Virus record (IMG/VR): IMGVR_UViG_2541047870_000005
Strand: one strand, 5' to 3'
Length of the DNA stretch: 55,336 bases
From: a virus
Taxonomy: Duplodnaviria; Heunggongvirae; Uroviricota; Caudoviricetes
Numbering within the stretch: the stretch's first letter is position 1; every line of letters starts with the position of its first letter. The position numbers were made by a program, and so were the translations under genes. Positions 27,313-45,616 of the stretch are shown here, piece by piece. The notes below the pieces were generated by a model. It ran no database searches. It saw nothing but the letters and a program-made list of their open reading frames with translations, and was not told the DNA's origin.

Positions 27313-27464
27313 CTTTCCTCCTATGACACCAAAGCAATACTGTATATATAACTACTATTTATATTTACAGTATATAATAATCTTACTGATGTAAAACGTT
27401 TTTTTACGTTCATCAGCCTGATATGCCTGGTATTATTAAGAGCACAAATTGTTAACCCGCGTAA

Positions 27465-29879: not shown

Positions 29880-30733
29880 GCACGCACTCCGTTCACGGCA
29901 GAACTATCCACGCCACGCAAAGGATCAAATCCCACCCAGCAGCGCGCCCCGGAAACAGCGATGATTTCTGTTGCAGATTTACTCTCACCAGCTGCTACGC
30001 CGATGCTGCGTTTTGCCTTGATGTAGTGGTGAGTAAAATTGCGATACAGCGAACGGATCAGGGATGTGTCACTGTTAGAAACAATGACCGGATGTCCTTC
30101 AGATGCTCGATGTTCAAGAACGGATGCCAGGTGATACTGGTCATCTTCAGTGAAACCATCAGTGTGATAGCCGGAAAACGTACCGTCATACGGCGGATCG
30201 CAATACACCACATCCCCCGCCTTCAACATCGCCAGCGTTTCATCAAAGCTGGCGCAGATAAACGTTGCCCGCTGGGCTTTTTCTGCAAATGCGCGAATTT
30301 CTTTTTCAGGTAAATACGGATTTTTATAATTACCGTAGGGAATGTTGAAATGCCCGCTCTTGTTATAGCGATATAAACCACGGTAACCGTGACGATTGAG
30401 ATACAGGAAATATACCGCTTTCATGAAATCAGTAATTTCAGTTGAGTAATTAAACTCCTGCCTTATGTTGTAATAAGCTACCTCCCTGTTTGCGATCTCA
30501 AATAAAACTCTGGCGCGAGATATAAACGATTCACAATCAGCGGCAACCTTTTTATAGAGGTTGATTAAATCAGGATTAATATCCGCAACCAGATAGCTTG
30601 GATAATCCGTCTCCATCATCACCGCACAGGAACCCGCGAAAGGTTCAACCAGTCGCGGGCCAGCAGGAAGGTGTTTTTTCAGTTCGGACATAATTGCGGT
30701 TTTATTTCCCGCCCATTTCAGGATGGTGCTCAT
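29876..30733 (-). CDS. dam: Phage DNA adenine methyltransferase (Dam family)
   Basis: ILKWAGNK...LVEPFAGS...DIN.DLI.LY...DPPY motifs; start taken at the internal Met ([11 protein letters not shown]); the ORF track extends to 30793. Confidence 0.8.
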
Positions 30734-30957
30734 ACAGCACCTCCGTTGTAATGTTTGCCTTTCAGCTCTGCGATTTCCTGACAGGTAATGCAAAGCTGCA
30801 CACCCGGAATGGCACGACGGCGTGCTGGCGGAATTGGCGCTTCACACTCAACGCAAAGCACGCGGGACACGCCCGGTGTTTTGGCACGGGCAGCACGGAT
30901 ATGACGTTGGCGTTCTTCTTCAACTCGCTGCTGTACGAGATCCATTGCATCAGCCAT
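30730..30957 (-). CDS. TraR/DksA-family C4 zinc-finger protein
   Basis: 75-aa ORF with CVEC...CITC four-cysteine motif. Confidence 0.7.
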   Translation of the reverse strand: MADAMDLVQQRVEEERQRHIRAARAKTPGVSRVLCVECEAPIPPARRRAIPGVQLCITCQEIAELKGKHYNGGAV

Positions 30958-31196
30958 CAGTGGATCTCCTGCGCTTCGTTCTGGATTGCTTCAGCAGTCA
31001 CACGCAGCAGTTCTGCCGCTTCGACGTGGTTTAACTGGCGGGATGTGATATGACACGCCAGGCTATCAAGGCGGGCAGCCATTGCCTCAGCCCTTGCCCG
31101 ACGTTCTTCAAGACGGGCCTCTGTCAGTAAAAGATTAAGACCTGCATCATCCGGTCCGGTTTTAGTCGTGAGGGTTTCAATATTACGCATAATCAA
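30957..31196 (-). CDS. Hypothetical early-region protein (79 aa)
   Basis: ORF in operon context between dam and upstream early genes. Confidence 0.5.
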   Translation of the reverse strand: MIMRNIETLTTKTGPDDAGLNLLLTEARLEERRARAEAMAARLDSLACHITSRQLNHVEAAELLRVTAEAIQNEAQEIH

Positions 31197-31257
31197 TTCT
31201 CCTGAATTTAGATAAAGGGATGCCCGGCGGGTTTACGCCATTAATTTCATTAGTTGG

Positions 31258-31599
31258 TTAATTCGGCATGGTTAGCCGTCTGGGAAATAAGCTCACCACT
31301 GCACGAAAATGATTCATTGCTTTAATCAACTCCCGCTTTTCGTCAGTGGTCAGCTCATTAATGCTGATGCTATGACGTTCAGCTGGAATTTTTGCCATAA
31401 AGAATATGGCAGCCAGTGCCCGTTTATTTTGTTCGCTATTAATATCCCGTGAATCACGCATATCTTTAATAAACCGCTCAAGCTCTGACTCAATATTCAG
31501 GCCAAAAACTTTCGCCCTTAACTCCGCAATGTGATTAAGTCCATTCAGGCGTTCACCGGGGCTTAATGGAACAGTCGCCGCAGTGCCTTCAATAGCCAT
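31258..31599 (-). CDS. Hypothetical early-region protein (113 aa)
   Basis: ORF in the early operon. Confidence 0.5.
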   Translation of the reverse strand: MAIEGTAATVPLSPGERLNGLNHIAELRAKVFGLNIESELERFIKDMRDSRDINSEQNKRALAAIFFMAKIPAERHSISINELTTDEKRELIKAMNHFRAVVSLFPRRLTMPN

Positions 31600-31680
31600 T
31601 TATGCATCCCACAACACATCTACTAAAAAATTTTTGATATGATCCATTACCAACATATTGATAGCTAGAAGGAATCATCA

Positions 31681-31929
31681 ATGTTGAACCCGGTTGAAAG
31701 AGAGCGTATAGAGCAACTTGAAAACGAGATCTCCAGTCTTCGCGATGAGGTTGCTGTTCAACGAATTCTTGTTTCAGGTCTGATCCACTCCTTATTTCGA
31801 ACTGACTCAGCAAATCAATCAGCATTTTTTGAGCTCCTCCGCGAAGAATTAAACAAACTTCCTTTAGGTTCGGTTAAACAACAAGAATTCACTCATCTGA
31901 TACAGACACTGATAGATCGTTACCGATAA
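31681..31929 (+). CDS. Hypothetical coiled-coil protein (82 aa) on the strand opposite to the early operon
   Basis: SD-like aggaa upstream of the ATG; competes with minus-strand ORF 31589-31825. Confidence 0.35.
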   Translation: MLNPVERERIEQLENEISSLRDEVAVQRILVSGLIHSLFRTDSANQSAFFELLREELNKLPLGSVKQQEFTHLIQTLIDRYR

Positions 31930-32144
31930 ATATTTCGCCGATAACGTTCAAGAGGTGATGTCTTTATACGCATCACTTCTTGTACTTTTTCACCACGTAT
32001 AAAGGTTCCATCCTTTAGCGTGAAAAAGTAGCTACCATCGCCCGACAACGACGGATAACAACAGAGCAAATCATCTTCAGGTACTGAATAATTCTCCCCT
32101 CTGTAACGAAAGTGATAAACCACTTTATTTTCTGCCGCATACAT
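31920..32144 (-). CDS. Hypothetical early-region protein (74 aa)
   Basis: ORF downstream of cII; overlapping alternative frame 32015-32341 not excluded. Confidence 0.35.
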   Translation of the reverse strand: MYAAENKVVYHFRYRGENYSVPEDDLLCCYPSLSGDGSYFFTLKDGTFIRGEKVQEVMRIKTSPLERYRRNIYR

Positions 32145-32318
32145 TTGGACTTTCTCCGTTTCCTCGTGGTCAATTCAGACAGCAATTCATCTTGTGAACG
32201 GCACGGATGCCAGCGTTTACCATCCTCACCCATGATCCAGCCGTGACCGTAGTGCATTGCCGGGCTTTGTTTTACCAGCAGCGATGCAAATGATGGTTCT
32301 TTCGTCAGCATAAGCACC

Positions 32319-32828
32319 TCACAGCAAACCGAATGAAGCACCGAGGCCAGTCACGGTATCAACTGCACTCGCCATCGCAGGATTAGCCTGTAAACGGGCC
32401 TGCAATGAAACAGCCGCCAGCGCCATCAGTCGTGTTACAGAGTTAATGCTGCTGATAGCATCACGACGACCGGCACAGGTTTTTACATCGCCAGATACCG
32501 CACCTGCAGCAACACGCCCGATCTCTGCGGTTGCACTCATGACGTAATGTGGCAGTTTCTCTTTTGCCACCTCATTAATCGGTACACATGGCAGACAATG
32601 AATCTGAGCCAGAAAGCCATCGACCAGCGTTGAATCTTCAGTCAGATCGGTAAGCAACCAGATTTCTGACGGCGTGAGCTGATGTGATTGTTCCGGGTTA
32701 AGCTTGTTACGCAGCGTCTGGACGTTCATTCCCGCGCGTTCTGCCAGCTTCGCCATGTTGTGACGCAGTGCGAAAGCCCGACAGGCTTCATCAAAATGCG
32801 GATGTTTGGAAATCTTGTAATCAAACAT
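32319..32828 (-). CDS. cII: CII-like establishment regulator (186 type)
   Basis: 169-aa ORF downstream of apl, divergent from cI, same size as 186 CII; HTH-like NVQTLRNKLN. Confidence 0.65.
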   Translation of the reverse strand: MFDYKISKHPHFDEACRAFALRHNMAKLAERAGMNVQTLRNKLNPEQSHQLTPSEIWLLTDLTEDSTLVDGFLAQIHCLPCVPINEVAKEKLPHYVMSATAEIGRVAAGAVSGDVKTCAGRRDAISSINSVTRLMALAAVSLQARLQANPAMASAVDTVTGLGASFGLL

Positions 32829-32860
32829 GGTGCTCCCTTAGAAAGTTCCCATAATTGAAG

Positions 32861-33103
32861 TTACTTACCAACAATGACGCGGAAGTTGGAATGACCGAGG
32901 GATTCACGGACCTGATCAGTTTTGTACATCAGATAACGCAGGCTTACGCGGCCTTTGTTTTTTTCTTTCTTGACCATGTACTTAGCGAGTTGGCCATGGT
33001 GAATTTTTTGGTAAACAGACCCACGGGAAATACCTTCCCATTCAGCGAATTCAGCAGGCGTAGCCATCTCTTTTGGTACACGAATTGAAATATCTGTGCT
33101 CAT
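32861..33103 (-). CDS. apl: Apl/Cox-like excisionase-repressor
   Basis: 80-aa ORF, first gene of the rightward-type operon facing cI; HTH-like AEWEGISRGSVYQKI. Confidence 0.65.
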   Translation of the reverse strand: MSTDISIRVPKEMATPAEFAEWEGISRGSVYQKIHHGQLAKYMVKKEKNKGRVSLRYLMYKTDQVRESLGHSNFRVIVGK

Positions 33104-33210
33104 AGTGCAGTATCCTTAGATTTAAGTTAGTTTTATCTCGTTTTAGCTCACTTTTCGGGATTCCCCTTGCGGGATAATCGCGATACTACGATCACTTTAA
33201 GTGGTCGTCA
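33104..33210. promoter_or_regulatory. Lysis-lysogeny switch region (divergent promoters/operators between apl and cI)
   Basis: 107-bp intergenic region between divergent regulator genes; positional inference. Confidence 0.45.
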
Positions 33211-33855
33211 ATGGAGTATTTGATGATCAACATTCAGGCAGGTCCCAATACGGGAGGTAGAGAGGCGATCGAAAGATTGCTTAAGGCATATGGATTCAGC
33301 ACCAAACAAGCACTAGCTGACCATTTAAAAATTTCAAAAAGCACTATGGCAAACAGAAACTTACGAGATAGCTTTCCTGCTGAGTGGGTCATCCAGTGTG
33401 CACTTGAAACAGGGGTTTCGCTGCTATGGCTAGCCACAGGCCAGGGTGAAATGTTCACTTCAGAAGATCGAGAAAAAAATCCCGTAAACGAGTCAAACGT
33501 CACGCTTCGACCACTTTCCAAAATCGTTGCCCCCAGCATTAAGCAAGCCGAATTGAAGAATGGGGAGTTGAATAACGAAGGGGAAGTCTTGCTTGATAGC
33601 AGCTTACTGGACAGTGAGCCCGGCAATTCATTGTTTATAAAAACGTCTACTGACTGCTTTGTAGTGGATATATCTGTCAAACAGGTTAGCAATGGTTACT
33701 GGCTTGTCGATATTGATGGGGTGAAAAGCATCGTCAAGATTGCCCGAATACCAGGCAACAGAATTGTTGTTCACCAGGACGACTCATCCTTTGAGTGTTC
33801 TGTTGATGATGTGGAAGTTGTCGGGCGAGCCATTAAAGTAATCAAGAGTATTTAG
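33211..33855 (+). CDS. cI: CI-type immunity repressor (186-like, N-terminal HTH plus C-terminal domain)
   Basis: 214-aa ORF upstream of int, HTH motif STKQALADHLKISKSTMANR; true start may be the Met at 33223. Confidence 0.75.
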   Translation: MEYLMINIQAGPNTGGREAIERLLKAYGFSTKQALADHLKISKSTMANRNLRDSFPAEWVIQCALETGVSLLWLATGQGEMFTSEDREKNPVNESNVTLRPLSKIVAPSIKQAELKNGELNNEGEVLLDSSLLDSEPGNSLFIKTSTDCFVVDISVKQVSNGYWLVDIDGVKSIVKIARIPGNRIVVHQDDSSFECSVDDVEVVGRAIKVIKSI

Positions 33856-33857
33856 TC

Positions 33858-34877
33858 ATGACCATCAGGAAACAGCCGAACGGAAAATGGTTGTGTGAGT
33901 GCTACCCTAACGGGCGGGACGGCAAGCGCGTGCGCAAGCAATTTGCGACGAAAGGCGAAGCCGTAGCATTCGAAAACTTCACCATGGATGAAGTAAACAA
34001 AAAACCATGGCTGGGGGAAAAGGAAGATCGGCGGCATCTGTCAGAAGTGATAGAGCAATGGCACTCACTATACGGGCAGACGCTCGCAGACCCCAAACGC
34101 CTGATGGCGAAACTTAGAATTATCTGTAATGGCCTGGGCGACCCTATCGCCTCAGAGCTGACCGCCGGAGATTTTACGAAATACCGTGAAGCGCGATTAA
34201 AAGGTGAAGTGCGAAATGAAGATGGCGCGCTTATGTCGCCAGTTAAGCCCCGAACGGTAAACCTCGAACAACGCAACCTATCATCAGTTTTTGGGACTCT
34301 GAAAAAACTGGGCCACTGGTCAGCCCCTAACCCGCTCGCCGGTCTGCCAACATTCAAAATCGCAGAGGGTGAACTGGCATTCCTGACCCCAGAAGAAATT
34401 AAACGCCTGCTGGATGCCTGCGCGGATTCTCAAAGCCCCAGCCTGCTGATGATTGCAAAAATATGCCTAGCTACTGGTGCGCGGTGGAGTGAAGCAGAAA
34501 ACCTGCAGGGCCATCAGTTATCAAAATACCGCATCACTTATACCAAGACGAAGGGCAAGAAAAACCGTACCGTGCCGATATCTCAGGATCTGTATGACGA
34601 ACTCCCCAAGAACAGAGGGAAGTTATTCACCCCATGCAGAAAAGCTTTTGAGCGTGCAGTTAAACGAGCTGGTATCGACTTGCCAGAGGGACAATGTACC
34701 CACGTCTTGCGCCATACATTCGCCAGTTACTTTATGATGAATGGAGGGAATATTCTTGTACTAAGAGATATTTTAGGCCATTCAGATATAAAAATGACTA
34801 TGGTCTATTCTCATTTTTCACCTGAGCATCTTGAAGATGCTGTAACAAAAAACCCTTTATCATCACTAGCGATTTAA
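33858..34877 (+). CDS. int: Tyrosine integrase (P2/186 Int family)
   Basis: 339-aa ORF after cI; C-terminal catalytic-region motifs (HVLRHTFAS, LGHSDIKMTMVYSH). Confidence 0.85.
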   Translation: MTIRKQPNGKWLCECYPNGRDGKRVRKQFATKGEAVAFENFTMDEVNKKPWLGEKEDRRHLSEVIEQWHSLYGQTLADPKRLMAKLRIICNGLGDPIASELTAGDFTKYREARLKGEVRNEDGALMSPVKPRTVNLEQRNLSSVFGTLKKLGHWSAPNPLAGLPTFKIAEGELAFLTPEEIKRLLDACADSQSPSLLMIAKICLATGARWSEAENLQGHQLSKYRITYTKTKGKKNRTVPISQDLYDELPKNRGKLFTPCRKAFERAVKRAGIDLPEGQCTHVLRHTFASYFMMNGGNILVLRDILGHSDIKMTMVYSHFSPEHLEDAVTKNPLSSLAI

Positions 34878-34881
34878 CATA

Positions 34882-36093
34882 ATGAAAATTAATAAAATTA
34901 GTACCACAGATTATGTAGCAATGCTTAATGAAATATTATTCGAAATAGAGTCCAAACCACTATTACAAGCTCCTTATCTCGCGGGAAATAATATCATTAA
35001 AGATTTTAACAATAGGGTTAAATGTTACCTAGAAGTCATAAACAAGATTTACAGTAAAAACCCTCACAACCTTGTAATTCGTGAAATAAAATCAAAAATA
35101 AAAAGCACAAAAACACTCTCGGATAAAATTTCAGAAACACTTAGATTATATTTAAACGGTAAAATCAAAGAATCTTACCTAACATTTGATCACGCTATCA
35201 CCAAGACAAATATAAATGACCACATCTATAATATGTCCGTTCCATTAAGTGTATTTTGTCATCCTGGAAAACCTCTATTTCGCGTAAGAAAAAGCGATCA
35301 AATAATAAAAGAAAGGCGTGATATCTTTCATATTCCTTTTTCTAAACGTTATCTTGTGAATGCACAAAGATACTCAGTCTCAGGCCTTCCTTGTTTATAT
35401 TTAGGAACCTCTATTTTTGTATGTTGGCAAGAAATGGAAAAACCAGACTTTGATAAATTATATGTATCTTCATTCATCACAGAGTCTGGTTCATCACATA
35501 GAATACTTAACCTTGGTTATAATTTGAGATCAGCATTGAACATAAACACCTTAGCATGGCTGTTAGATAATGATACTGAAGGAACTATGAATAGGGTCAT
35601 TTCGAACTTAATTTCCTGGCCACTTGTGTTAGCCTGTAATTATACAAAACAACATAAAAACTCTAGTTTCAACCCTGAGTACATAATCCCCAACCTTCTT
35701 ATGCAATGGCTCAGCAGCAATGAAAATAAGGGCATAGCCGGTATCGCTTATCGCACGACTAAAATTCTCAATCAAAAAGATAGTGATATTGGTATTAATA
35801 TAATCATGCCACCTAAAATGGATAATATTTTGGATTCTGGTTATGATTACTGCCCACACTTACTAAATATATTTAAATTTACCAAACCTGTTTCATGGCA
35901 AGTATTTAGCACTTTAAACGTCAAGACCGATGGTATGGATGAAGATAGACTCATAATGGGAGGACCAACTCCAGCATCAGGTACAATTGAAGATTTTGAT
36001 GAATCGCTAGTGGAATATTACAATAATACCTCATTCAAAAAAGTTCAATTGTTAATTCATAAAATGATGAAGCATGATTATCTTGAGCCTTAA
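34882..36093 (+). CDS. RES-domain-like protein (403 aa) with about 150-aa N-terminal extension; AT-rich cargo
   Basis: Segment RYSVSGLPCLYLGTSIFVCWQE reproduces the spacing of the RES-domain core (R-W-N-x-P-G-x-P-x-L-Y-x-x-x-S...E) as I recall the consensus. Confidence 0.5.
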   Translation: MKINKISTTDYVAMLNEILFEIESKPLLQAPYLAGNNIIKDFNNRVKCYLEVINKIYSKNPHNLVIREIKSKIKSTKTLSDKISETLRLYLNGKIKESYLTFDHAITKTNINDHIYNMSVPLSVFCHPGKPLFRVRKSDQIIKERRDIFHIPFSKRYLVNAQRYSVSGLPCLYLGTSIFVCWQEMEKPDFDKLYVSSFITESGSSHRILNLGYNLRSALNINTLAWLLDNDTEGTMNRVISNLISWPLVLACNYTKQHKNSSFNPEYIIPNLLMQWLSSNENKGIAGIAYRTTKILNQKDSDIGINIIMPPKMDNILDSGYDYCPHLLNIFKFTKPVSWQVFSTLNVKTDGMDEDRLIMGGPTPASGTIEDFDESLVEYYNNTSFKKVQLLIHKMMKHDYLEP

Positions 36094-36126
36094 GTGGCGG
36101 CGTTTTGGCGGTAGAGTATTAAGAGG

Positions 36127-37080
36127 ATGCAGTTACAAAAAACCTCTAACTCCATTATAGAAATAGGAAGTGATCTGATGAATAACATCATCTATACAAA
36201 CGAACAATATGAAATCGAAAATCTAAGTATAGCCCTGTATGCAATTTTCGATAAAATAAAAGAAAGGATTTCCATCGCCGAAGAATCTAACATTTACACT
36301 ATCAGAGATGTTGGTCATAACTCGGAATCTCAAGTTTGCAAAAACACTTTTAATAAATTAACGCAATTTTTTGATTCAAACATTCTTTACATCCAAGACT
36401 GTGAAGTCTTAATTTCATATATAACAGAGTGTAGTTTGGAACTCTCTGTTATAGCGCAACAATTTTATGAAATACTCTGGAGCGATTTGTTAATAACCAC
36501 ACCAGACAAAGATTTTAAAGGGATTTTAGTAGCAAAATCGCCAAAAACAAGCTTGCTATTTTCTTTGTTAAGCATGCTATTTATAAAAATGAATAGTTTG
36601 TTTGACTACGTTACTAAAATCTCCTTTGAATTATTAAAGAGTAACTTCCCAATCTCTAAATACAAGAAATTAATATCCAAAAATAAATTATACGGCAACT
36701 ATAAAGAATTAGTTTTTTCGACAACAACGGATACCATATTTGAAAATAGCAATTTTATAAACACTGTAACATCATTACGAAATCATATAATTCACCACGG
36801 TTATATAGATGAGCACCCAAAGGTATATGTTGAAGTGGAAAATGGCATTGCATTTGGGAGATTTGTACTATTCCCCGATTTGAATGAGAGTGGAGGACTG
36901 GAAAATTGCATTAACAGAACTTTATTCTATTCAAAAGAAACAAAGATTGATGAAAAATTACCTGACTTAATTAAGGAATGCCAAATTAAAGTAATTAACT
37001 CGTTGAAGGTACTAATTAAAGATCATGAAGCATTAGAAGATTCAAGAAAGACTGGCGGCACTTTGGCGGCAGAGCATTAA
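36127..37080 (+). CDS. Hypothetical 317-aa protein with HEPN-like Rx4H motif (Abi-like candidate); AT-rich cargo
   Basis: Motif LRNHIIHHGY; gene lies 33 bp downstream of the RES-like gene on the same strand. Confidence 0.45.
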   Translation: MQLQKTSNSIIEIGSDLMNNIIYTNEQYEIENLSIALYAIFDKIKERISIAEESNIYTIRDVGHNSESQVCKNTFNKLTQFFDSNILYIQDCEVLISYITECSLELSVIAQQFYEILWSDLLITTPDKDFKGILVAKSPKTSLLFSLLSMLFIKMNSLFDYVTKISFELLKSNFPISKYKKLISKNKLYGNYKELVFSTTTDTIFENSNFINTVTSLRNHIIHHGYIDEHPKVYVEVENGIAFGRFVLFPDLNESGGLENCINRTLFYSKETKIDEKLPDLIKECQIKVINSLKVLIKDHEALEDSRKTGGTLAAEH

Positions 37081-37165
37081 AAACGAGTAAAATGAACAAA
37101 CACCGAGTAATACCAACCTACTGTTTTAAAAAGCAAATCATTGTTTTTGTTATAGTTAAGATAGT

Positions 37166-37210
37166 ATGTAGGAATTTCGGACGCGGGTTCAACTCCCGCC
37201 AGCTCCACCA
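37166..37210 (+). other. ssrA: 45-nt 3' terminal fragment of tmRNA gene ssrA ending in CCA (integration core / att copy), not a complete ssrA
   Basis: atgtaggaatttcggacgcgggttcaactcccgccagctccacca matches the E. coli ssrA 3' end; sequence upstream does not continue the ssrA match. Confidence 0.8.
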
Positions 37211-37245
37211 AATAATGATCCGGATACGTCCGGTGAAGTACAGAA

Positions 37246-37279
37246 AGCCCGCATGGCACAAGCCCTGCGGGCTTTTTTG
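37246..37279 (+). terminator. Rho-independent terminator downstream of the ssrA core
   Basis: agcccgca-tggcacaagccc-tgcgggct followed by tttttt. Confidence 0.7.
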
Positions 37280-37330
37280 TGTTTGTCGTTGTCCGAGAAC
37301 ATCCGGCTAAATCCGATGATTATTGGTATA

Positions 37331-37384
37331 CGTTTCGGTATACGGTAGGATGTATACCTAAAAGCGTATACCAATTCATGAAGG
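37331..37384. promoter_or_regulatory. Cluster of four GGTATAC/GTATACC sites upstream of the satellite integrase gene
   Basis: ttGGTATACgtttcGGTATACggtaggatGTATACCtaaaagcGTATACC; the first 23 bp recur at 49543-49565. Confidence 0.5.
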
Positions 37385-37394
37385 AGCGGCCACA

Positions 37395-38594
37395 GTGGCA
37401 CGGACAACACGCCCCCTGACCAACACCGAAGTTCTGCGCGCGAAAGCGTTAGAGAAGGATCTAACGCTGCATGATGGCGATGGGCTTTTCCTGATAGTGA
37501 AAACTAGCGGCAAGAAACTCTGGCGCTTTCGCTATCAACGCCCAGCAACAAAACAGCGGACTATGATGGGACTTGGTGCTTTTCCTGCCCTTTCTCTTGC
37601 TGATGCCCGAGGGTTAAGAGCAGATTACCTTGCCCTATTAGCCAACGGAATCGACCCGCAAATTCAAGCTGAAGTTGCAGAGGAACAGCAGCAAATCGCT
37701 CTGGACAGTATTTTTTCGACGGTCGCCGCTAACTGGTTCCAGCTCAAAAGCAAAAGCGTTACCCATGATTACGCTAAAGATATATGGCGTTCACTGGAAA
37801 AAGACGTATTCCCCACCATCGGGGAGATCCCTGTCCAGCAAATCAAAGCCCGAACACTGGTTGAAGCCCTTGAACCGATCAAAGCTCGTGGGGCGCTGGA
37901 GACGGTGCGCCGGTTGGTGCAGCGTGTTAACGAGATAATGATTTATGCCGTAAATACTGGTCTTATTGATGCCAATCCAGCATCAGGCATTGGAATGGCC
38001 TTTGAGAAGCCAAAAAAACAAAATATGCCTACGTTGCGCCCAGAAGAATTGCCTATGCTGATGCGTTCTCTCGTCATGTCAAATTTGTCTGTTCCGACTC
38101 GCTGCCTCATTGAGTGGCAACTCCTGACTCTAGTTCGTCCTTCTGAGGCTTCCGGTGCTAGGTGGGCTGAGCTCGATCTCGATGCAAAGCTCTGGACTAT
38201 CCCAGCTGAACGAATGAAGGCTAAGCGGGAACACATAGTCCCTCTATCTCCTCAGGCATTAGAGATTCTTGATGTGATGAAGCTAATCAGTGCCCATCGT
38301 GAACATGTTTTCCCGAGTCGGAATGACCCAAAGCAACCAATGAATAGCCAGACGGCAAATGCTGCTTTAAAAAGGATTGGATTTGGTGGTAGATTGGTTG
38401 CTCATGGATTGCGTTCAATTGCCAGCACCGCATTAAATGAAGCGGGTTTTAATGCAGATGTAATTGAGGCTGCTCTTGCACATAGTGATAAAAATGAAGT
38501 GCGCAGAGCATATAATCGTTCAACTTACCTTGAGCAACGAATAGGACTTATGAATTGGTGGGGCCAAAAAGTGTACGAGCGCAATCAATATTAG
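37395..38594 (+). CDS. P4-type tyrosine integrase (IntA-like); GTG start
   Basis: 399-aa ORF about 185 bp downstream of the ssrA core, as for intA next to ssrA in E. coli K-12; integrase-like N-terminal region. Confidence 0.85.
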   Translation: MARTTRPLTNTEVLRAKALEKDLTLHDGDGLFLIVKTSGKKLWRFRYQRPATKQRTMMGLGAFPALSLADARGLRADYLALLANGIDPQIQAEVAEEQQQIALDSIFSTVAANWFQLKSKSVTHDYAKDIWRSLEKDVFPTIGEIPVQQIKARTLVEALEPIKARGALETVRRLVQRVNEIMIYAVNTGLIDANPASGIGMAFEKPKKQNMPTLRPEELPMLMRSLVMSNLSVPTRCLIEWQLLTLVRPSEASGARWAELDLDAKLWTIPAERMKAKREHIVPLSPQALEILDVMKLISAHREHVFPSRNDPKQPMNSQTANAALKRIGFGGRLVAHGLRSIASTALNEAGFNADVIEAALAHSDKNEVRRAYNRSTYLEQRIGLMNWWGQKVYERNQY

Positions 38595-38623
38595 TTAACT
38601 TGTTATACATGGAGATATAGTTC

Positions 38624-39082
38624 ATGGAGAATAATCTAGATAATTTATGTTATGAATTCTTTAGAGAGTTTTCACGTTATGAATATTGCCTTAAGGCATG
38701 TGGACTTCATCATAAAATAAAAGATGCTAAAGCGAACTGGGATGAGTATGCAAAGCAAGTTTCTGAAATCATAAATAACACAACTGATCCAGAGCTAATT
38801 GCTGCTATCACCTACTTTAAAGAACACCCACCCAAAAAACAAATCATAGAAGATGACTCTTTAGTTTGGGATGATTCTTTACCACAAGAAAAAGATTTAG
38901 CAAAATTTCTTTTTTTGTTAATCCGCCGTGTAAGAAACAATCTTTTTCACGGAGGAAAATTTAACGGGAAATGGTTTGAACCTGAACGTAGTGAGGCGTT
39001 ACTGCAACATGGCCTTGTTATTTTGAGGCATTGCGGCACAAGGCATAGTGAAGTAAGCAAAGCCTATTCTGGAATAGCCTGA
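38624..39082 (+). CDS. Hypothetical 152-aa protein with HEPN-like Rx4H motif
   Basis: Motif RRVRNNLFHGG; AT-rich; first cargo gene after int. Confidence 0.45.
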   Translation: MENNLDNLCYEFFREFSRYEYCLKACGLHHKIKDAKANWDEYAKQVSEIINNTTDPELIAAITYFKEHPPKKQIIEDDSLVWDDSLPQEKDLAKFLFLLIRRVRNNLFHGGKFNGKWFEPERSEALLQHGLVILRHCGTRHSEVSKAYSGIA

Positions 39083-39096
39083 GCGGTGTTATAAAA

Positions 39097-39143
39097 GAGA
39101 AGTTTTTGTTACTGGAAGAATGATAAAATTCAAAAACTTCTCT
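39097..39143. terminator. Long inverted repeat between convergent genes (candidate bidirectional terminator)
   Basis: agagaagtttttg ... caaaaacttctct, 13-bp arms, 21-nt spacer. Confidence 0.4.
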
Positions 39144-39174
39144 ATTGATTGTTTAAAAAATCGTCTAAATAAGA

Positions 39175-41757
39175 CTATTGTACCCAAAAGTTACGAAATA
39201 TATTATGTATTTCGTTTTGAACTAATTGTGGCAGTTCTTCCATGTCAACTTTATTGTCCTTAATCCAATTAATGCATTCTTCCTCATCTAAACTATCATT
39301 AGGAATAAGCTCTGAAATCATTACAGCAGCAGTTCTTGAAAAGCCAAGCCCTATTAGTGAAATCTGAGTTTTTAAACTTACACCCAGTTCTAAATAAACA
39401 CCGATATCTTCAACATCTTTTGCTAAGTCTGTGCGATCTATCGAAAGATAAAAGCTTTTTAATAAATCATTATAACATCCTAAAAGCCTTGGAGCTTGAT
39501 AGCGAGCGATCTCTTCAACATCCTTCATAACCCCTCGTATTAAAGTCGCTTCTTTGAAAACAATATTTTTCTTTTTGTTATATCTTATTCTATCCGAGAT
39601 CAATCTTGCTAGGGGATAACCTTTCATCCACTTGGAAACTAACAAGGCCTGTACGTAAGCTCCTTTTGAATTATAACCTAGCTTCTTACTCAGAGTATCA
39701 CTAATTCTAGAGAATGCGGATACATATGAATCTAACGCATCATTACTACCAGGTTCAGAAAGCAGTAATCTCTCTACAGGTTTGTTTGTATCCCGCGAAA
39801 ATCTATCCCAAAGGTTTTGCATTAAAAGCGGGCTTATACCAGGATGCCGCACAACCAATTCGTGTGGAAAAGTTAAAGAATCAAAAACATCAAATATTGC
39901 TTCATTTAAAACATCGATATTTTTTATATTGTACTTTTCCATGTAAGGATTATTATCCAAGCCATTATAAAAATAAAATGATGAACATAAATAACTAAAT
40001 AGACTCTGGAGATTAGGATTCCGCTCAGACATACCAAAATGATGCTCTGAAAAAATATAGGAAACCAACTTATCCATGTCATGGGAAATAGCATCCGTGG
40101 CGCGAGTTATAAATATATTTTTTTTGGTTTTTGGAGGCTCTCCATTCCAAATTTTTTCATTGTCGCTATCGATGCAGATGACATTACCTTGGAATTCTTT
40201 TCCCCAACGACCAGCTCTGCCAGCAAGATTCCAAAAATCCTCTTCTCGCATCGGGGTTGAATTACCCTTTTTAGGGCCTCTTATAAAAATATTTTTACAA
40301 GCCATGTTTACGCCCTCAACTAAAGTTGAGGTACAAATTAAAAAATCAATCTTACCTTTACTAAACAATCGTTCAATCTCGCCCTTTATTATTAAAGGCA
40401 TGTTGCCATAATGAAAAGCGACTCTCTTTTTTAGAGTGCGATTTAATGCGAAATTTTTATGTATAATTGTCTCACTAAGCTCAACGAGAGCTAAAATTTC
40501 TTCATCCTCAGTCTCATTTTCTATACTTGCAGATATTAGCTTGGAAGTAGATTCTGCTTCAGCGGCTCCATTTACGTAAACTACGTTACCAGAAGCCCCC
40601 TTACCTAAACAAAGAGCTACAAAAGGCAATCTTTTACTTTCAGGAGATGGTGCATTTTCTAAAGAAAAGTTTCCTAACTCGCGTTTTTCACCGTTTGCAA
40701 AATAATACATCAACCAATCTTTGGTCTTGCGTGGTTTTTGTTCTACCCATATTAAATTTTGATTAACTGTAACATAGTCACTTTTTATAGTTCTTTTGTT
40801 TTTTAATATTGGAGCATCACTGAGCAATATTTCAGGATTTAAGGTGAAAGGACTTGCAAAGATAACTTTTGAATCAGGGTTATTTAGACAAGTCAGTTCA
40901 ATTACATGTTGAAGAATAACACCTCTTCCACCATCACCGATCTTGTGTGCTTCATCAACAACTAAGACGTCTATCTTTGGAATTTGTGAGAAATGATTGT
41001 AGAATAAATTTAATCTTTCCTGTGTAAATATGAAGACATTAGATTTTTCGCTCTGGTATACATTACTCAATGGTAGTGTCTGAATATTAACTATATTTGT
41101 TAAATTAGGATCCAAACGTTTTTGCAACTCAGAATATACTTCTGAAATCAATGCCCTTGTTGGTACGATATAAATAACTAAGCAATTCTTATTTCTTTTT
41201 ACAAACTGCTCCACCCAAGATTCCAGGATAAATGATTTTCCTACAGAGGTAGGAGCAGAGACACTAACCCATGAGTTTTCTTGTACCGCATCCCAAAACT
41301 CTGATTGAAACCTATTAGCATAAATATGCTTATCAGCATCTATTTCAATTGTATATAGAATTTTTCTTTTAGTTAGTTCTAACTGAGCCTTTAAGGGTAA
41401 TCTTTCTTCGAAATCAGGGTTAAGATACCCCCTATTTTCAGCAAGTTGTATTGCTGGATTATTAGATAATGAATCAAGAATTAATGCAGCACTATCTTTT
41501 CTTGCTTCACTTTTTTCATTCAATAAGCAATACTGTGCAATCCTTAAGGCTGCATCTTGGCATTTCTCATCACTTGAGAAAGCCAAAGAACTAGCACATG
41601 TTAAAAGATAGCCGACATCCTCAGAACTAATCTGTGGGATTACATCTGATTTTAACTCTGGAAATTGATCTTTTATCGAGTTAGCGACTAATGCCTGATA
41701 TTTTCTTAAGAATCCTTGATTCTTAATCAACCACCCAGATAAATCTCGCAACGACAT
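39175..41757 (-). CDS. hamB: SF2 DExH-box helicase, HamB-like (Hachiman-type defence helicase candidate)
   Basis: 860-aa AT-rich ORF; Walker A APTSVGKSF and motif II VLVVDEAHKIG; start overlaps the stop of the upstream gene. Confidence 0.55.
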   Translation of the reverse strand: MSLRDLSGWLIKNQGFLRKYQALVANSIKDQFPELKSDVIPQISSEDVGYLLTCASSLAFSSDEKCQDAALRIAQYCLLNEKSEARKDSAALILDSLSNNPAIQLAENRGYLNPDFEERLPLKAQLELTKRKILYTIEIDADKHIYANRFQSEFWDAVQENSWVSVSAPTSVGKSFILESWVEQFVKRNKNCLVIYIVPTRALISEVYSELQKRLDPNLTNIVNIQTLPLSNVYQSEKSNVFIFTQERLNLFYNHFSQIPKIDVLVVDEAHKIGDGGRGVILQHVIELTCLNNPDSKVIFASPFTLNPEILLSDAPILKNKRTIKSDYVTVNQNLIWVEQKPRKTKDWLMYYFANGEKRELGNFSLENAPSPESKRLPFVALCLGKGASGNVVYVNGAAEAESTSKLISASIENETEDEEILALVELSETIIHKNFALNRTLKKRVAFHYGNMPLIIKGEIERLFSKGKIDFLICTSTLVEGVNMACKNIFIRGPKKGNSTPMREEDFWNLAGRAGRWGKEFQGNVICIDSDNEKIWNGEPPKTKKNIFITRATDAISHDMDKLVSYIFSEHHFGMSERNPNLQSLFSYLCSSFYFYNGLDNNPYMEKYNIKNIDVLNEAIFDVFDSLTFPHELVVRHPGISPLLMQNLWDRFSRDTNKPVERLLLSEPGSNDALDSYVSAFSRISDTLSKKLGYNSKGAYVQALLVSKWMKGYPLARLISDRIRYNKKKNIVFKEATLIRGVMKDVEEIARYQAPRLLGCYNDLLKSFYLSIDRTDLAKDVEDIGVYLELGVSLKTQISLIGLGFSRTAAVMISELIPNDSLDEEECINWIKDNKVDMEELPQLVQNEIHNIFRNFWVQ

Positions 41758-41758
41758 T

Positions 41759-42700
41759 TCAACTCTCCAATGCTTTAATTAAACTAGCCCTAAATGCTTT
41801 TACTGAAGGAAAAGGAAGAATAAAAACATGCATAGCAAAGCGATCAAGTTTTTTATTAACTATACCACCTTGCACACTAGTTGACCATTTCCCGACTTTA
41901 GTATTAATCAAAGCAACTAGTTCACTGATATCAATTGAACTGGGCCCTTGTGGATAATCTTTAAGATCAAACCCAACTAAGCATATTCCTCTGTATTCCA
42001 ATTTATTAAAATCCGGGCTATCAGGATCTAAGAATCTTTTCAACGCTTGTTCTAGTTCTATATCATCAACATTTAAGTGCGACTCCAGCAACTGCATATC
42101 ACGTGTCTCAGCGCCTTCTATTCCCATAGAACTTTGAAGTAATGGAGCTATACTATCCATACACTCAGAAATACCTTTGCTCAGATTGGAATAGAGTTTA
42201 GACTCGCCCCAGTATAAACATAATTTTTTATTATCTTTATCTACGCCTATATGTATTCCATCTGCACCATGGTAATGCATTTGAGAACTCGTTTTCAGGC
42301 TCATTTTGCAAATAATTTGTGGAAATCTAAGGAATTGCTCTGCAAATAAAAAAAGAATAAATTCACCGCCTTCGCCACTATTTGCAAGCCTAGTAAATAA
42401 TTTTTTTGCTTGATTTGCTAATTTTGTTATTTTCGCTGTTGATTGTGTTTCATTAAAATATTGCACTGCCTCATTGATTTTTTTCCTTGGAATAGCATAA
42501 TCAACTACTTTATCGTTCAAGAATTGGATTAACGCGTCTACCCGAGGACGTCCATTGCCATCAAGATTAAGGCAATGAAAATGACAAGTTGCATTTGTAT
42601 TTTCAATCAATGAATTAACTTTAACTTCACTAAAATAACTATTTAGTGTTTGACCATCATCTCTAATCAGATTTTCAAGCGCGACATGCAGTGCATCCAT
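41759..42700 (-). CDS. hamA: HamA-like protein with PD-(D/E)xK-type motif (Hachiman-type effector candidate)
   Basis: 313-aa AT-rich ORF immediately upstream of the helicase; GIHIGVD ... LYWGESK resembles a PD-(D/E)xK nuclease signature. Confidence 0.5.
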   Translation of the reverse strand: MDALHVALENLIRDDGQTLNSYFSEVKVNSLIENTNATCHFHCLNLDGNGRPRVDALIQFLNDKVVDYAIPRKKINEAVQYFNETQSTAKITKLANQAKKLFTRLANSGEGGEFILFLFAEQFLRFPQIICKMSLKTSSQMHYHGADGIHIGVDKDNKKLCLYWGESKLYSNLSKGISECMDSIAPLLQSSMGIEGAETRDMQLLESHLNVDDIELEQALKRFLDPDSPDFNKLEYRGICLVGFDLKDYPQGPSSIDISELVALINTKVGKWSTSVQGGIVNKKLDRFAMHVFILPFPSVKAFRASLIKALES

Positions 42701-42889
42701 GAGTAGGTCCTTGCATATTTTATTTTCCTCATCATTTGCAATATATACTTATTTCAATAGCTTGCAACATTTTTACTCGACAATGATACTTACACCACAC
42801 TCGCTGCTTAAAATCATTGTTATCGCTTTAACGTGATAAACGATTCTTTCAATCAGGTACTCATTGAAAGTTAAAAGTTACTTTGACCA

Positions 42890-43033
42890 TACACAGCGTG
42901 CGCTGCCCCGCCCGCCTGCCCGCTTCGCTTAACAGACTGGTTTTCATGCACCCCGTAAATCGTCTCAGAAGCCACCACACAAGGGCTTTCGCGTCAAAAA
43001 TGGCGCATGAGACTCATGCGTTTTCATGCGCTA
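42890..43033. other. Putative satellite cos (packaging) region
   Basis: GC-rich non-coding segment homologous to 25786-25935; minus strand reads GGCGGGCGGGGCAGCGCACGCTG, resembling the P2/P4 cohesive end as I recall it. Confidence 0.45.
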
Positions 43034-43125
43034 TAGATATGCACTCATACGCCTTCAGGCCAGCCAGGGAAAAGGCGTAAAAAATCCCGGTACTGGACCG
43101 GGACTACGTGGGCGTATTTTGCTAA

Positions 43126-43398
43126 TCAGACAGGAATTAGCTGACGGCTTGACAGCTTTGACGCGGAGCCATAGCGGTTGAGAGTTTGCTGTTGTTTTTC
43201 TGGCATTTGTTCTTTGTCTGATTCCTGTTCATTGCGCCAAGGCTTCATAATTATCGTATCCACGCTTTCCAGAGCGGTAAATGTGCAGGAACATTCCAGA
43301 TTCTGGCACTGATACCATGAGCGTTTAACCGATGGAGCTTCATAGGCGCTGGTTCTGGCGTGAGCGACCGTCCCACATTCAGGACACTTCAGGGCCAT
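43126..43398 (-). CDS. Delta/Ogr-like zinc-finger transactivator of helper late genes
   Basis: MALKCPECGTVAHARTS...YQCQNLECSCTF matches the Ogr/Delta zinc-finger pattern; start taken at the internal Met; the ORF track begins at 43500. Confidence 0.7.
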   Translation of the reverse strand: MALKCPECGTVAHARTSAYEAPSVKRSWYQCQNLECSCTFTALESVDTIIMKPWRNEQESDKEQMPEKQQQTLNRYGSASKLSSRQLIPV

Positions 43399-43399
43399 A

Positions 43400-43954
43400 T
43401 CAGTACCCTCCTTTTTCATTAAGTCGGTTAAGGCGGGCCAGGAAAACTTTATGTTGTGCCGGGGTGAAACTGGTTGAAGCATCAGCGTACATTGATGCAT
43501 CCACCGTTAATCCGGTTTCGTCGATAATGCTCTTGTATGCTGCTGAAATTACCGGAGTACGCACTTCCGTTTGTCGGGCTACAGCGGTTCGTAATATTTT
43601 CATTGCCGCCTCAAGCCCGTATGGAGCGCAAAGAAAAGGAGCCAGTGCGTCAGTGAGTGCATCACCATGCTCGCTCATGAAGTTTTCCGTTGCGCTTGTA
43701 ACACAACTCTCCAGCACAATCTGGTGAGCATAAAGACCATCCCGTGCAGCACAGTTAATCTGCCATTCGAGGACAGCAAGACGCTCACGAAGCTCCTCAA
43801 GCTGGCTGGCATATGCTGCCGGTTTTTCTTCAGTATTCAGCAGAGCCGCCAGACGAAGCTGGTAGGTACTTTGCGTATTACGTAGTGTCAGCCAGCTTTT
43901 TATCGCCGAGCGGTAATCGTTGAGAGCTTCCTGAGTAATGGTTCCGGCATTCAT
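43400..43954 (-). CDS. psu: Psu-like protein (polarity suppression / capsid decoration)
   Basis: 184-aa ORF in the sid-psu-delta block; segments FMSEHGDALTDALAPF and SFTPAQHKVF resemble P4 Psu as I recall it. Confidence 0.55.
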   Translation of the reverse strand: MNAGTITQEALNDYRSAIKSWLTLRNTQSTYQLRLAALLNTEEKPAAYASQLEELRERLAVLEWQINCAARDGLYAHQIVLESCVTSATENFMSEHGDALTDALAPFLCAPYGLEAAMKILRTAVARQTEVRTPVISAAYKSIIDETGLTVDASMYADASTSFTPAQHKVFLARLNRLNEKGGY

Positions 43955-44736
43955 TTCTTCTCGCCCCCTTTAACCATGTCACGCTGTTTAAGCATCCGTG
44001 AACGCGCTGCAGGGCTGGGGGATTGTCTGGCATCCTGGATGGCTTTATCGTCCGCATAAATGCTGATCCCCGGCAGGGTAATATCATCCGTTGAAGATAC
44101 GTTACAGGACAGTGCCGGAGTGGTGAGGTGCTCGCTGATAAATTGCTTCAGCACACTTTCGGGGTCGTTTACGGTATGAACTACACCGATAACAGCAGAA
44201 GCGCTTCGGCCCAGAGTCATTTTCAACAGTCCAAGGATCTGAATAAGTTTCTGGCCGTGTTCCTTCATAAACTCATTCCAGAGCCACACTGCATGAGTTT
44301 CAATCAGGCGATTATGTTCGCTGATGTAGTGGTTTGCAGCATCCGCAGTTTTCCAGGGCAGGAATTCATTTTCTGCCACCTGAGCTGCCAGCAAATCTTC
44401 GAACTCATCCAGTGTTTCGCGTCCGAGGGCGATTTCTGCCCGCAGTTTTTTCATGCGTGGTGTCATATTTCCCTGATTCTCACGAAACAGGTTTCGCCAT
44501 TCATCATTAAGCGCCTGCGTTTCCGTTTTTGTATCTTCCTGACGTTTACGGATAGTTTCAATCATTGCAGCAGCTTCAGTTTGTTTTCGCCGTTCTTCCT
44601 GCCAGACAGCTTTTGCTGCCTTAACTTTTTCCACCGCTTCGCGAATTTTCGGCGGGAGGGAGGATGTAATGTTTGCATCAGAGATCTGGTTAACAGTAGT
44701 CATGAATGCTCCGGTAGTGTTTTGTTGTCGTGTCAA
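43951..44736 (-). CDS. sid: Sid-like capsid size-determination protein
   Basis: 261-aa coiled-coil-rich ORF first in the operon upstream of psu; assignment by position and size. Confidence 0.45.
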   Translation of the reverse strand: MTRQQNTTGAFMTTVNQISDANITSSLPPKIREAVEKVKAAKAVWQEERRKQTEAAAMIETIRKRQEDTKTETQALNDEWRNLFRENQGNMTPRMKKLRAEIALGRETLDEFEDLLAAQVAENEFLPWKTADAANHYISEHNRLIETHAVWLWNEFMKEHGQKLIQILGLLKMTLGRSASAVIGVVHTVNDPESVLKQFISEHLTTPALSCNVSSTDDITLPGISIYADDKAIQDARQSPSPAARSRMLKQRDMVKGGEKK

Positions 44737-44860
44737 TTGTGCCGATGCCCATACAAGCGCACTACCGAGGGGGATTGTGTCAGTGACAGAACAATGACCT
44801 TGTTCTGGCTAGCCAGAGAAATGTGTCATGTCTGATCTTCAACTTTCCTTTAATAAATAC

Positions 44861-45066
44861 TATTCACTACTGTTCACTTTGATAAAAAAATTGATAATAC
44901 AGCTAGTTAAGAGGTGAAGGGTTGACAAGGCAGTATTCAGTGACTGTTCATGAGTGTTCATCGGAAGGTAGCGTGATTTATGATTTTTTTTCATCAAAAG
45001 TGAAATTTTTATTCCGAATGATTATTTCATTATTGTTCCTCACAACTATTCACCACTCTTCAGTAG
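44861..45066. repeat. Cluster of TGTTCAC(C)-like iterons (P4-type ori/crr candidate) in an AT-rich intergenic region
   Basis: tattcactacTGTTCACttt, gtgacTGTTCAtgagTGTTCAtcgg, ctaTTCACCactcTTCAg. Confidence 0.5.
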
Positions 45067-45616
45067 TATTCAACAGATGATGAAATAGACGATTTTTCTT
45101 TGCCGGGAAATAACATGATTCCCCCCTTTCCCTGGTGTTGCATTTCAATCTGATTTTTATAAAACTAGAACTGCTCGGTCTTTTATGAATTTATTTGGAT
45201 ATATTTTTAGGTTAAGAATGCGTGGTTATTGATTTTATGCGGTTCTAATTCTTCTGAGCTTGATGCAATTCATGAGTATATCCTGAAGTTAGGTTTGCAA
45301 TGTAAAGCCATATGTAGAAATTGTGCATCCCTGCTGAATGGGTTGCGGTTTCAGTACCATTAAGTTCTATGACTTATGGGGTAGTAACCCCTGGATGAAA
45401 GTTAGTTCCTATTAATGTCCCTGTATTTATAGTTCGCAGACATAATATCTATCATGCCATTTTATGTGGTTTGATATAGTTTTAAATTCCATTAAATCAA
45501 TATGTGACGCTAAATAAATAATGGGTGCGTAAGCGAGAAATATATACATAATAAGGAACTACCTGAATCCGGGGGGATTTATCCGGACTGATGAAGGAAT
45601 TAAAGAGGGTAGATAA

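Follow-up and report, generated by a model that had tools for sequence, protein, structure and literature searches.

The window, i.e., the complete stretch of 55,336 nt analyzed here, contains two mobile elements that meet at a 45-nt segment at positions 37166–37210. The left-hand element is a P2-like prophage of the Fels-2/Cartapus type (~898–37165), whose attR core is the 45-nt segment; the right-hand element is a P4-like satellite of 12.4 kb (37211–49637). The segment lies on the plus strand, reads ATGTAGGAATTTCGGACGCGGGTTCAACTCCCGCCAGCTCCACCA, and is identical to the final 45 nt of the annotated tmRNA genes (ssrA) of E. coli D3, MS1665, SCU-172, Eco_23-2667, 789, and K-12. Base 37165 is a T where ssrA has a G, so that the identity begins exactly at 37166. 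The 32-nt 3′ part of the fragment occurs once in the window and in none of 100 shuffled sequences. ARAGORN detected neither a tmRNA nor a tRNA gene in the whole window, and no tmRNA reached the Rfam gathering score over the same length. At a relaxed threshold, the tmRNA model RF00023 scored 29.7 bits compared to a gathering score of 47, and the 3′ end alone was aligned confidently, with high posterior probability. The feature set of RF00023, i.e., a full-length tRNA-like domain with its two acceptor strands, the pseudoknots, and the reading frame of the tag, is not present in the window.

On the 3′ side of the fragment, a terminator scan revealed a terminator-like hairpin with a T-run (~37244–37280) that nearly matches the terminator behind ssrA of K-12. 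The distance from the CCA end of the fragment to the start of a P4-type integrase gene (37395) is 184 nt, compared to 203 nt between ssrA and intA in K-12. The first-pass annotation had described exactly the last 45 nt of ssrA through CCA, an ssrA-like terminator behind them, a P4-type integrase at K-12-like spacing, and unrelated DNA upstream. All four statements were confirmed; the unrelated DNA upstream (37081–37165) represents the phage arm of an attP site (see below). A partial Rfam match to IsrM at 37201–37278 does not represent an IsrM gene, as it covers the ends of the model and the terminator only and scores 39 bits versus a gathering score of 376.

The body of the prophage (3463–33210, minus strand) is collinear with the PGAP-annotated prophage of E. 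coli D3, to which it is 92–99.6% identical; the collinearity continues up to position 37165. It comprises, in this order, ogr (3505–3723), D, U, T, and the tail genes, followed by the baseplate, lysis, capsid, terminase, and portal genes, a cos-like region (~25783–25944), a cargo hotspot, the replication gene A, Dam, and the cII/apl switch. The cI repressor gene (33211–33855) and a tyrosine integrase gene (33858–34877; Pfam Int_N and Phage_integrase) follow on the plus strand. Thus, the element combines a P2-type set of structural, lysis, and replication genes with a cI/cII/apl switch of the 186 type. At the amino acid level, the integrase shares 93.5% identity with its Cartapus counterpart and 95% with the SEN8 enzyme, and the int/cI DNA is ~83% identical to that of Fels-2, Escherichia phage Cartapus, and the Salmonella phages RE2010 and SEN8. 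The best-matching other genomes showed 97.5% identity over 86% of the prophage query. The prophage body is a mosaic in comparison with each of the complete genomes searched, and no identical prophage was found among the complete E. coli genomes searched.

In the free phage genomes of Cartapus and SEN8, these 45 nt (positions 5531–5575 of L005 and 4279–4323 of L006, respectively) are situated between int, with its cargo, and ogr, likewise with cargo on its side. Their attP sites consist of a P arm that aligns with window positions 37081–37165 (plus strand), the identical 45-nt core, and a P′ arm, AATAAATCAAGGGGTTACGTGAAAGCGTAGCCCCTTTTT.... The 85-nt P arm of the window is, moreover, identical in strain GF47. 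The P′ arm with its terminator (AATAAATCAAGGGG...) corresponds to the DNA located behind the intact ssrA gene in D3, MS1665, SCU-172, and Eco_23-2667. Because P arm, core, and P′ arm recur in the same arrangement in Cartapus and SEN8, we assign the 45 nt as the attP core of a Fels-2/Cartapus-type phage and positions 37166–37210 as the attR of the prophage. The earlier proposal that the int and ogr arms flank attP in the circular phage genome is directly visible in these two free phages. Salmonella phages of this kind offer a precedent, as Fels-2 and SopEPhi integrate into ssrA according to PMC3448106, which cites Pelludat 2003.

The fragment might, in principle, be something other than an attachment site, namely a decayed tmRNA pseudogene truncated by a deletion, or a product of chance or misassembly. 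Just 45 nt are present and no likeness to ssrA extends upstream, as such an origin would predict. The identity starts, however, precisely where the attP core of the free phages starts, and the 85 nt upstream are the conserved phage P arm. An identical junction occurs in seven independent complete assemblies, and the absence of the sequence from all 100 shuffles excludes a chance match. We regard a pseudogene or artifact as practically negligible and dropped this explanation on account of the attP alignment, which identifies the upstream DNA as the P arm.

Additional genes are located on both sides of the attachment site. Two plus-strand genes for proteins of 403 and 317 amino acids lie between int and attP (34882–37080) and match PHROGs without assigned function. 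Neither protein produced a match in Pfam (even with E values up to 10), NCBIfam, PADLOC, or the PDB sequences. The 403-residue protein shares 41% identity with the 'putative RES' protein of the Cartapus annotation, which itself reaches the RES profile at only E = 0.23, and the 317-residue protein contains an RNHIIHH motif at residue 218. No significant match of either gene to the RES (PF08808) or a HEPN-family profile was obtained. The ogr arm contains a cargo segment (898–2207, plus strand) with a gene for a ParA-family ATPase (951–2006; Pfam AAA_31/CbiA, PHROG ParA-like). This segment is 99.7% identical to the DNA that separates ssrA from ogr in MS1665, SCU-172, and 1002W03. The order ssrA, ParA, ogr in MS1665 and SCU-172 indicates that the ParA gene is ogr-arm cargo adjoining attP. 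The first-pass annotation had placed a RES/HEPN pair in the int arm and ParA in the ogr arm, on either side of attP; the positions hold, but the RES and HEPN labels found no support in the profile searches, and only the RNHIIHH motif and the similarity to the Cartapus protein argue in their favor.

The ogr arm is interrupted by two copies of IS3, both outside known essential genes; the first-pass annotation had not mentioned this interruption. Copy 1 (1–897, plus strand) is cut by the start of the window; its right inverted repeat ends at 897 and is followed by GTA. Copy 2 (2208–3462, minus strand) is complete, has a length of 1255 nt, and separates ParA from ogr. The two copies are identical in sequence, with 0 mismatches between copy 1 and the corresponding 897 nt of copy 2, and are inverted relative to each other. 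Copy 2 represents a simple insertion flanked by a GGC target duplication (2205–2207 and 3463–3465), and MS1665 has the uninterrupted sequence ...GGATAGGC|TTACAG... at this site. The right junction of copy 1 maps to positions 4001/4002 of the MS1665 locus L002, 264–267 nt past ssrA. A simple insertion can be demonstrated for copy 2 only, as the left flank and the target duplication of copy 1 are situated beyond the window. The intact GGC duplication and the unchanged orientation of ParA relative to MS1665 rule out an inversion between the two copies. The arrangement IS3–ParA–IS3 is absent from the complete E. coli genomes searched, and the IS3/ParA junction gave 0 matches in collections of genome and metagenome contigs.

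An intact ssrA gene is expected at the ogr end of the prophage, as predicted in the first-pass annotation. This arrangement is seen in strain D3, and in the genome from which the window derives, the gene probably lies on the far side of IS3 copy 1, ~0.6–1.0 kb outside the left end of the window. If copy 1 is a simple insertion, the CCA of ssrA is predicted ~0.63 kb to the left of base 1. The array could, alternatively, be organized as described here while IS3 copy 1 has recombined with another IS3 element. The intact ssrA would then no longer be contiguous with the prophage, which would have lost its attL and would be locked in. The window starts inside copy 1, so that its left flank and duplication are out of view, E. 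coli genomes are rich in IS3 (a median of six matching places per genome), and the two copies present here are identical and inverted. Against such an event speak the intact GGC duplication of copy 2 and the ParA-to-ogr orientation, which is the same as in MS1665; furthermore, insertion sequences by default produce simple insertions. We thus consider an IS3-mediated rearrangement of the left end to be unlikely.

The satellite begins directly behind the CCA end of the fragment. Its genes were assigned by means of PHROGs, Rfam, and Pfam and the annotation of strains D3 and 789. The left arm (37211–37394, plus strand) provides a terminator for the tmRNA gene that it normally abuts (~37244–37280) and includes the arm-type repeat TATTGGTATACGTTTCGGTATAC (TATTGGTATACG..GGTATAC) at 37321–37343, which is found again at 49543–49565. 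This arm is identical to the DNA behind the intact ssrA gene of strain 789. The integrase gene follows at 37395–38594 on the plus strand (Pfam Arm-DNA-bind_3, Phage_int_M, and Phage_integrase; NCBIfam PRK09692 with 587 bits), and its product is 61% identical to IntA of the K-12 element CP4-57. Over the catalytic domain, the integrases of prophage and satellite are only 25% identical. They belong to different subfamilies of the tyrosine integrases and are unrelated beyond the catalytic fold.

The hotspot of the satellite is occupied by a Hachiman defense pair (39175–42700), with the genes for the HamB helicase (39175–41757, minus strand; PADLOC 1135 bits) and HamA (41759–42700, minus strand; PADLOC 450 bits, Pfam HamA). 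A cos-like region of 160 nt (42886–43045), detected by a local BLAST comparison with the cos region of the prophage, is weakly similar (65–78%) to positions 25783–25944 and occupies a syntenic position. A 19-mer of the P2 cos site had no match with up to three mismatches. The genes delta (ogr/Delta-like; 43126–43398), psu (43400–43954), and a sid-like gene (43951–44736) follow on the minus strand, and two Psu-like PHROG families matched the satellite with E values of 1e-73 and 6e-95. Rfam revealed an isrK-like RNA (45949–46026) and a C4/CI-type RNA (46095–46182; C4 antisense RNA with 84.6 bits at a gathering score of 45). The alpha primase-helicase gene (46936–49320, plus strand) encodes Zn_Ribbon_Prim, Toprim_3, D5_N, and Pox_D5 domains. 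With Sid/Psu/Delta, alpha, and a P4-type integrase assembled within 12.4 kb and an immunity RNA of the CI type, the element has the composition of a P4-like satellite.

The right end of the satellite is marked by its own attR (49543–49637, plus strand). It is composed of the arm-type repeat (49543–49565), a P arm ending in ...AATTCAGACT, and an eroded core, CCGCCAGCTC, at 49628–49637. Positions 49615–49637 read ACAAATTCAGACTCCGCCAGCTC and abut the chromosomal flank ATGATTGGACGG. This attR is a homologue of psaA, the attR of CP4-57 in K-12, and lacks the whole CACCA end. Compared to the unoccupied site of strain GF47, the attR is 8 nt shorter, and the attR of D3, 789, and 190 exceeds it by 3 nt; these three strains share the same derived 5-nt deletion relative to GF47. 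The sequence identity used by the phage thus extends over 45 nt, and the core of the satellite is confined to ~10–15 nt at the extreme 3′ end of ssrA; the two cores are nested. At the junction, the core of the satellite attL corresponds to the last 10–15 nt of the fragment (37196–37210). Since the cores do not differ anywhere in the block, the sequence does not reveal where either integrase crosses over. The graded loss of attR core sequence, with 1 nt in K-12, 5 nt in 789, D3, and 190, and 8 nt in the window, might conceivably represent scars of abortive integrase action.

Further to the right, the window contains an older island remnant that is shared with K-12 (49638–53779, minus strand; Pfam AIDA and the annotation of D3, 789, and K-12). 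It includes a disrupted autotransporter gene of the ypjA type (49795–53179, minus strand) as well as a fragment of the pinH recombinase gene together with a remnant of an IS3-family end (~53460–53712), and it is conserved in at least 3029 genomes. The remnant is followed by the oldest att remnant of the window (53780–53868, plus strand), which lies in the pinH–ypjC backbone. Here, a P arm of the P4 type, 92% identical to that of the satellite attR, and a decayed core (ACCAATTCAGACACCGCCAGCTCAACA, 53793–53806) are fused to a P′ arm of the Fels-2 type with terminator. The Fels-2-type part encompasses ~60 nt (AATAAATCAAGGGGTTACGTGAAAGCGTAGCCCCTTTTT...GCAAAATGG), and the segment matches positions 14523–14599 of the D3 locus L001, directly past the intact ssrA gene. 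The satellite attR at 49628–49637 and the older remnant at 53780–53868 demonstrate that the array is deeper than two layers. Two readings are available for the remnant. It records still older integration rounds of the same traffic according to one of them, and according to the other, its terminator block is the ancestral ssrA terminator, which has been copied by the phages.

Complete genomes revealed the same site in four different states of occupation. Seven complete E. coli genomes, D3 and six others, have the identical junction of phage, fragment, and satellite. The order in D3 is smpB, intact ssrA, ogr, the remainder of the P2-like prophage up to cI and int, the two cargo genes, the 45-nt fragment, and the P4-type integrase gene. 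In strain 789, the intact ssrA gene is joined directly to the same satellite, and window positions 37163–55336 are 99.967% identical to this strain. The same int arm of the phage and the 45-nt fragment also occur in GF47, where they are followed by CCACCAATCATGATTGGACGG...ypjA; the satellite is absent. Strain 190 has the same satellite behind a lambdoid prophage, whose integrase is of a third kind and whose fragment, ~36 nt long, is imperfect. SCU-172 carries an independent array with ssrA, ParA, and ogr at one end and int, a different cargo gene, the fragment, a P4-type integrase gene, and a NACHT gene at the other. Altogether, the junction type was found in 19 of the 5426 complete genomes, and the 45-nt core occurs at 5695 places in these genomes, corresponding to ~270 extra copies.

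These observations bear on the order of events. The structure alone cannot settle the order of integration, because the fragment holds the entire core of the satellite. A Fels-2-like phage might therefore have arrived first, with the satellite inserting later into the displaced 45-nt fragment, which contains the complete 10–15-nt satellite core; the outcome would be structurally the same, and in GF47, the phage does occur at this site without the satellite. The comparison of strains, however, points in the other direction. The satellite has the same 5-nt deletion in attR in strain 789, which lacks an upstream element, in D3, which has the phage, and in 190 with its lambdoid prophage. The right half of attR, to which the deleted bases belong, is derived from the target, so that a single old integration of the satellite followed by separate upstream arrivals is far more parsimonious than three identical re-integrations. 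Moreover, the prophages of the window and D3 are 92–97% identical over most of their length, reaching 99.6% only in the replication–int arm, whereas the satellite and its flank are 99.96% identical. Unlike prophages upstream of a near-identical satellite and flank lend support to a satellite that was already resident. On this reading, the old ssrA end had already been joined to the satellite when the phage integrated, so that the fragment is followed by the satellite terminator and integrase at K-12-like spacing. We consider the phage-first order to be very unlikely and favor, on the basis of these sequence comparisons, the integration of the satellite first and of the phage later. The order proposed in the first-pass annotation is thus retained; its assumption of one common core is replaced by two nested cores.

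The array can be accounted for by the following sequence of steps. The satellite would have integrated earlier by means of its own P4-type integrase and a short core, CCGCCAGCTC[CACCA], corresponding to the last 10–15 nt of ssrA. In the attP brought by the phage, the core would have duplicated the final 45 nt of ssrA exactly, with the P arm on one side and, on the other, a P′ arm that supplied the phage's own terminator. The prophage integrase (33858–34877) would have recombined this attP with the ssrA 3′ end. The phage copy would thereby complete an intact ssrA gene at the ogr end, forming attL, and the former ssrA 3′ end would be displaced to the int end and persist there as attR at 37166–37210. 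Each incoming element would thus restore ssrA from its own copy and push the previous end outwards, in keeping with the usual scheme for islands at tRNA and tmRNA genes (PMC4383910). We conclude, with a probability of roughly 0.9, that the 45-nt fragment is a displaced piece of the tmRNA gene that marks the boundary between a Fels-2/P2-type prophage and a P4-type satellite integrated in tandem at ssrA. The fragment serves simultaneously as attR of the phage and attL of the satellite.

The prophage resembles Fels-2, SopEPhi, Cartapus, and SEN8 (Peduoviridae) with regard to the P2-like virion module, the 186-type cI/cII/apl switch, and the 45-nt attP core with its phage-borne terminator. It differs from them in the cargo genes on both sides of attP and in the two IS3 copies in the ogr arm. 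The satellite, in turn, is organized like P4-like satellites with defense hotspots, with int, hotspot (here Hachiman), cos, delta/psu/sid, CI RNA, and alpha within ~12 kb (Rousset et al., 2022, PMC9122126; PMC13586616). Its integration site is different from that of P4 in that the window satellite uses the tmRNA gene. P4 itself integrates at a leucine tRNA gene.

The closest relative with respect to the location is CP4-57, which sits at ssrA of K-12 (PMC10107115) in the order intA ... psaA, ypjA, pinH, ypjC. Both elements have a P4-type integrase gene ~200 nt past the ssrA end, a near-identical terminator, and an attR at the same chromosomal flank, ATGATTGGACGG ... ypjA, and they share the ypjA–pinH–ypjC backbone. 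In contrast to the 22-kb CP4-57, the element in the window is a 12.4-kb P4-like satellite with sid, psu, delta, alpha, and Hachiman. Its attR is eroded by 8 nt, compared to 1 nt (delta-T357) in K-12. Furthermore, CP4-57 is located at the live gene, whereas the window satellite adjoins a dead ssrA fragment. In K-12, excision of CP4-57 deletes T357 (delta-U357), which inactivates the tmRNA and abolishes trans-translation (PMC10107115). Excision of the satellite from the window, by contrast, would presumably rejoin no more than the dead fragment, and the live tmRNA gene would be spared. As its attR lacks the CACCA end, the satellite would, on leaving a live gene such as that of strain 789, be expected to truncate the acceptor stem and the CCA of the tmRNA and to do at least as much damage as CP4-57. 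Both elements in the window may still be able to excise, although the attR core of the satellite is eroded. It is conceivable, although rather improbable, that the helper-type prophage between ssrA and the satellite insulates the tmRNA gene and that stacking has been selected for this reason. If this were true, helper and satellite would be kept genetically linked, and the cost that satellite mobilization imposes on the host would be removed.

Tandem arrays at tRNA and tmRNA genes have been described as carrying one displaced 3′ fragment, in the orientation of the gene, and one integrase per island, and the tmRNA gene is the most enriched island target (PMC4383910). The window contains a 3′ fragment for each element (37166–37210 for the phage, 49628–49637 for the satellite, and 53793–53806 for the older layer) and an integrase gene for both the phage (33858–34877) and the satellite (37395–38594). 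The intact proximal target gene is seen in D3 and SCU-172 and, in the case of the window, would belong to the region beyond its left end. There is no difference of substance between these Islander arrays and the one described here; the neighbors in the present case are a helper-type phage and a satellite. Integration into ssrA by Fels-2-type phages and P4-type islands and the formation of tandem arrays are well established, and the junction belongs to this already known kind. It reveals no new mechanism, and its use lies mainly in annotation. The fragment defines precisely where the prophage ends on the right (37210) and where the satellite starts on the left, and it locates the two int-arm genes of unassigned function and ParA in the cargo positions on either side of the phage attP. 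Together with the remnants at 49628–49637 and 53780–53868, it allows the 55-kb window to be parsed into dated layers of mobile DNA. The junction also shows physical linkage, at a single locus, of a P2-type helper to a satellite of the P4 type, both of them with defense cargo. Compared to the known arrays, the only mildly new angle is that helper and satellite are linked at the same tmRNA gene, with an insulating effect as a possible consequence.

The prophage proved to be a mosaic relative to its counterpart in E. coli D3. Its late genes (3463-27135) were 92-97% identical to those of D3, whereas the replication-int arm together with the junction (27136-37891) reached 99.6% identity. This regional difference suggests recombination with a related phage, either before or after integration.

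Two att-proximal cargo genes of the prophage, encoding proteins of 403 and 317 amino acids (34882-37080), have a GC content of ~31-33%. Searches of Pfam, NCBIfam, PADLOC and PDB sequences matched neither protein, and the 317-aa product of the second gene carries a HEPN-like RNHIIHH motif. In the P2-like phage Cartapus and in E. coli SCU-172, the same slot is filled by different genes. Given their location in a variable cargo slot, we consider both genes candidates for unknown defence or toxin genes. Low-GC cargo was also found in the portal-gene A interval (24619-27050), where it flanks the cos-like region of the prophage on both sides. An LPO_1073/Vpar_1526-family protein is encoded at 24619-25476, accompanied by an 81-aa ORF and a 313-aa protein that matched no family. 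The interval corresponds to an old/tin-type hotspot.

At the ogr arm (1-3465), an IS3 copy lies on each side of the ParA cargo gene. The two copies are identical in sequence and inverted relative to each other, a layout that resembles a composite transposon. The second IS3 copy is associated with a clean GGC target duplication. This IS3-ParA-IS3 arrangement was absent from every complete E. coli genome searched. Furthermore, a 1-nt deletion was observed at the annotated ParA start (931-951; ATGCAG versus ATGGCAG in strain MS1665). The start of the ORF is shifted seven codons downstream to the ATG at 951, which immediately precedes the Walker A motif KGGVGKTT.

In E. coli strain 190 (locus L007, 5990-6040), a lambdoid prophage resides between ssrA and the same P4-like satellite. 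Its ssrA fragment is imperfect and comprises ~36 nt (GGACATGGG versus GGACGCGGG in ssrA). As the integrase of this prophage represents a third type, at least three integrase types use the ssrA end in E. coli. Adjacent to the ssrA fragment of the window, a partial match to the Rfam model of the Salmonella island sRNA IsrM was detected at 37201-37278, with 39 bits compared to a gathering score of 376. Because the match is limited to the first bases and the terminator of the model, we rejected an IsrM gene at this position. The same restriction suggests that IsrM arose in the equivalent left arm of an island, beside an ssrA fragment.

In the attR core of the satellite (49628-49640 in the window; 30457, 22664 and 7697 in the comparison loci L009, L010 and L008, respectively), the very site of recombination has been eroded in steps. 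The unoccupied site in strain GF47 is full length; one nucleotide is lost in K-12, five in 789, D3 and 190, and eight in the window. This erosion is one of only ~5 differences between the window and strain 789 across 18 kb.

Within the conserved pinH-ypjC backbone, a Fels-2-type P' arm with its terminator is joined to a decayed P4-type attR (53780-53868). Two readings fit this fused remnant: it was left by integrations of far greater age, or it reflects the copying of the ancestral ssrA terminator by the phages. A search of K-12 with the motifs CCGCCAGC and CAAGGGGTTACG yielded no match at the position of the remnant.

Satellite and prophage share ~160 nt of weak similarity (65-78%) at syntenic positions (42886-43045 and 25783-25944, respectively). 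Both stretches probably represent cos regions, one of each element, as would be in keeping with a helper-satellite pairing. The int-proximal hotspot of the satellite harbors a complete Hachiman defence pair, HamA/HamB (39175-42700), whereas the SCU-172 satellite carries a NACHT gene and CP4-57 of K-12 carries abpAB at this place.
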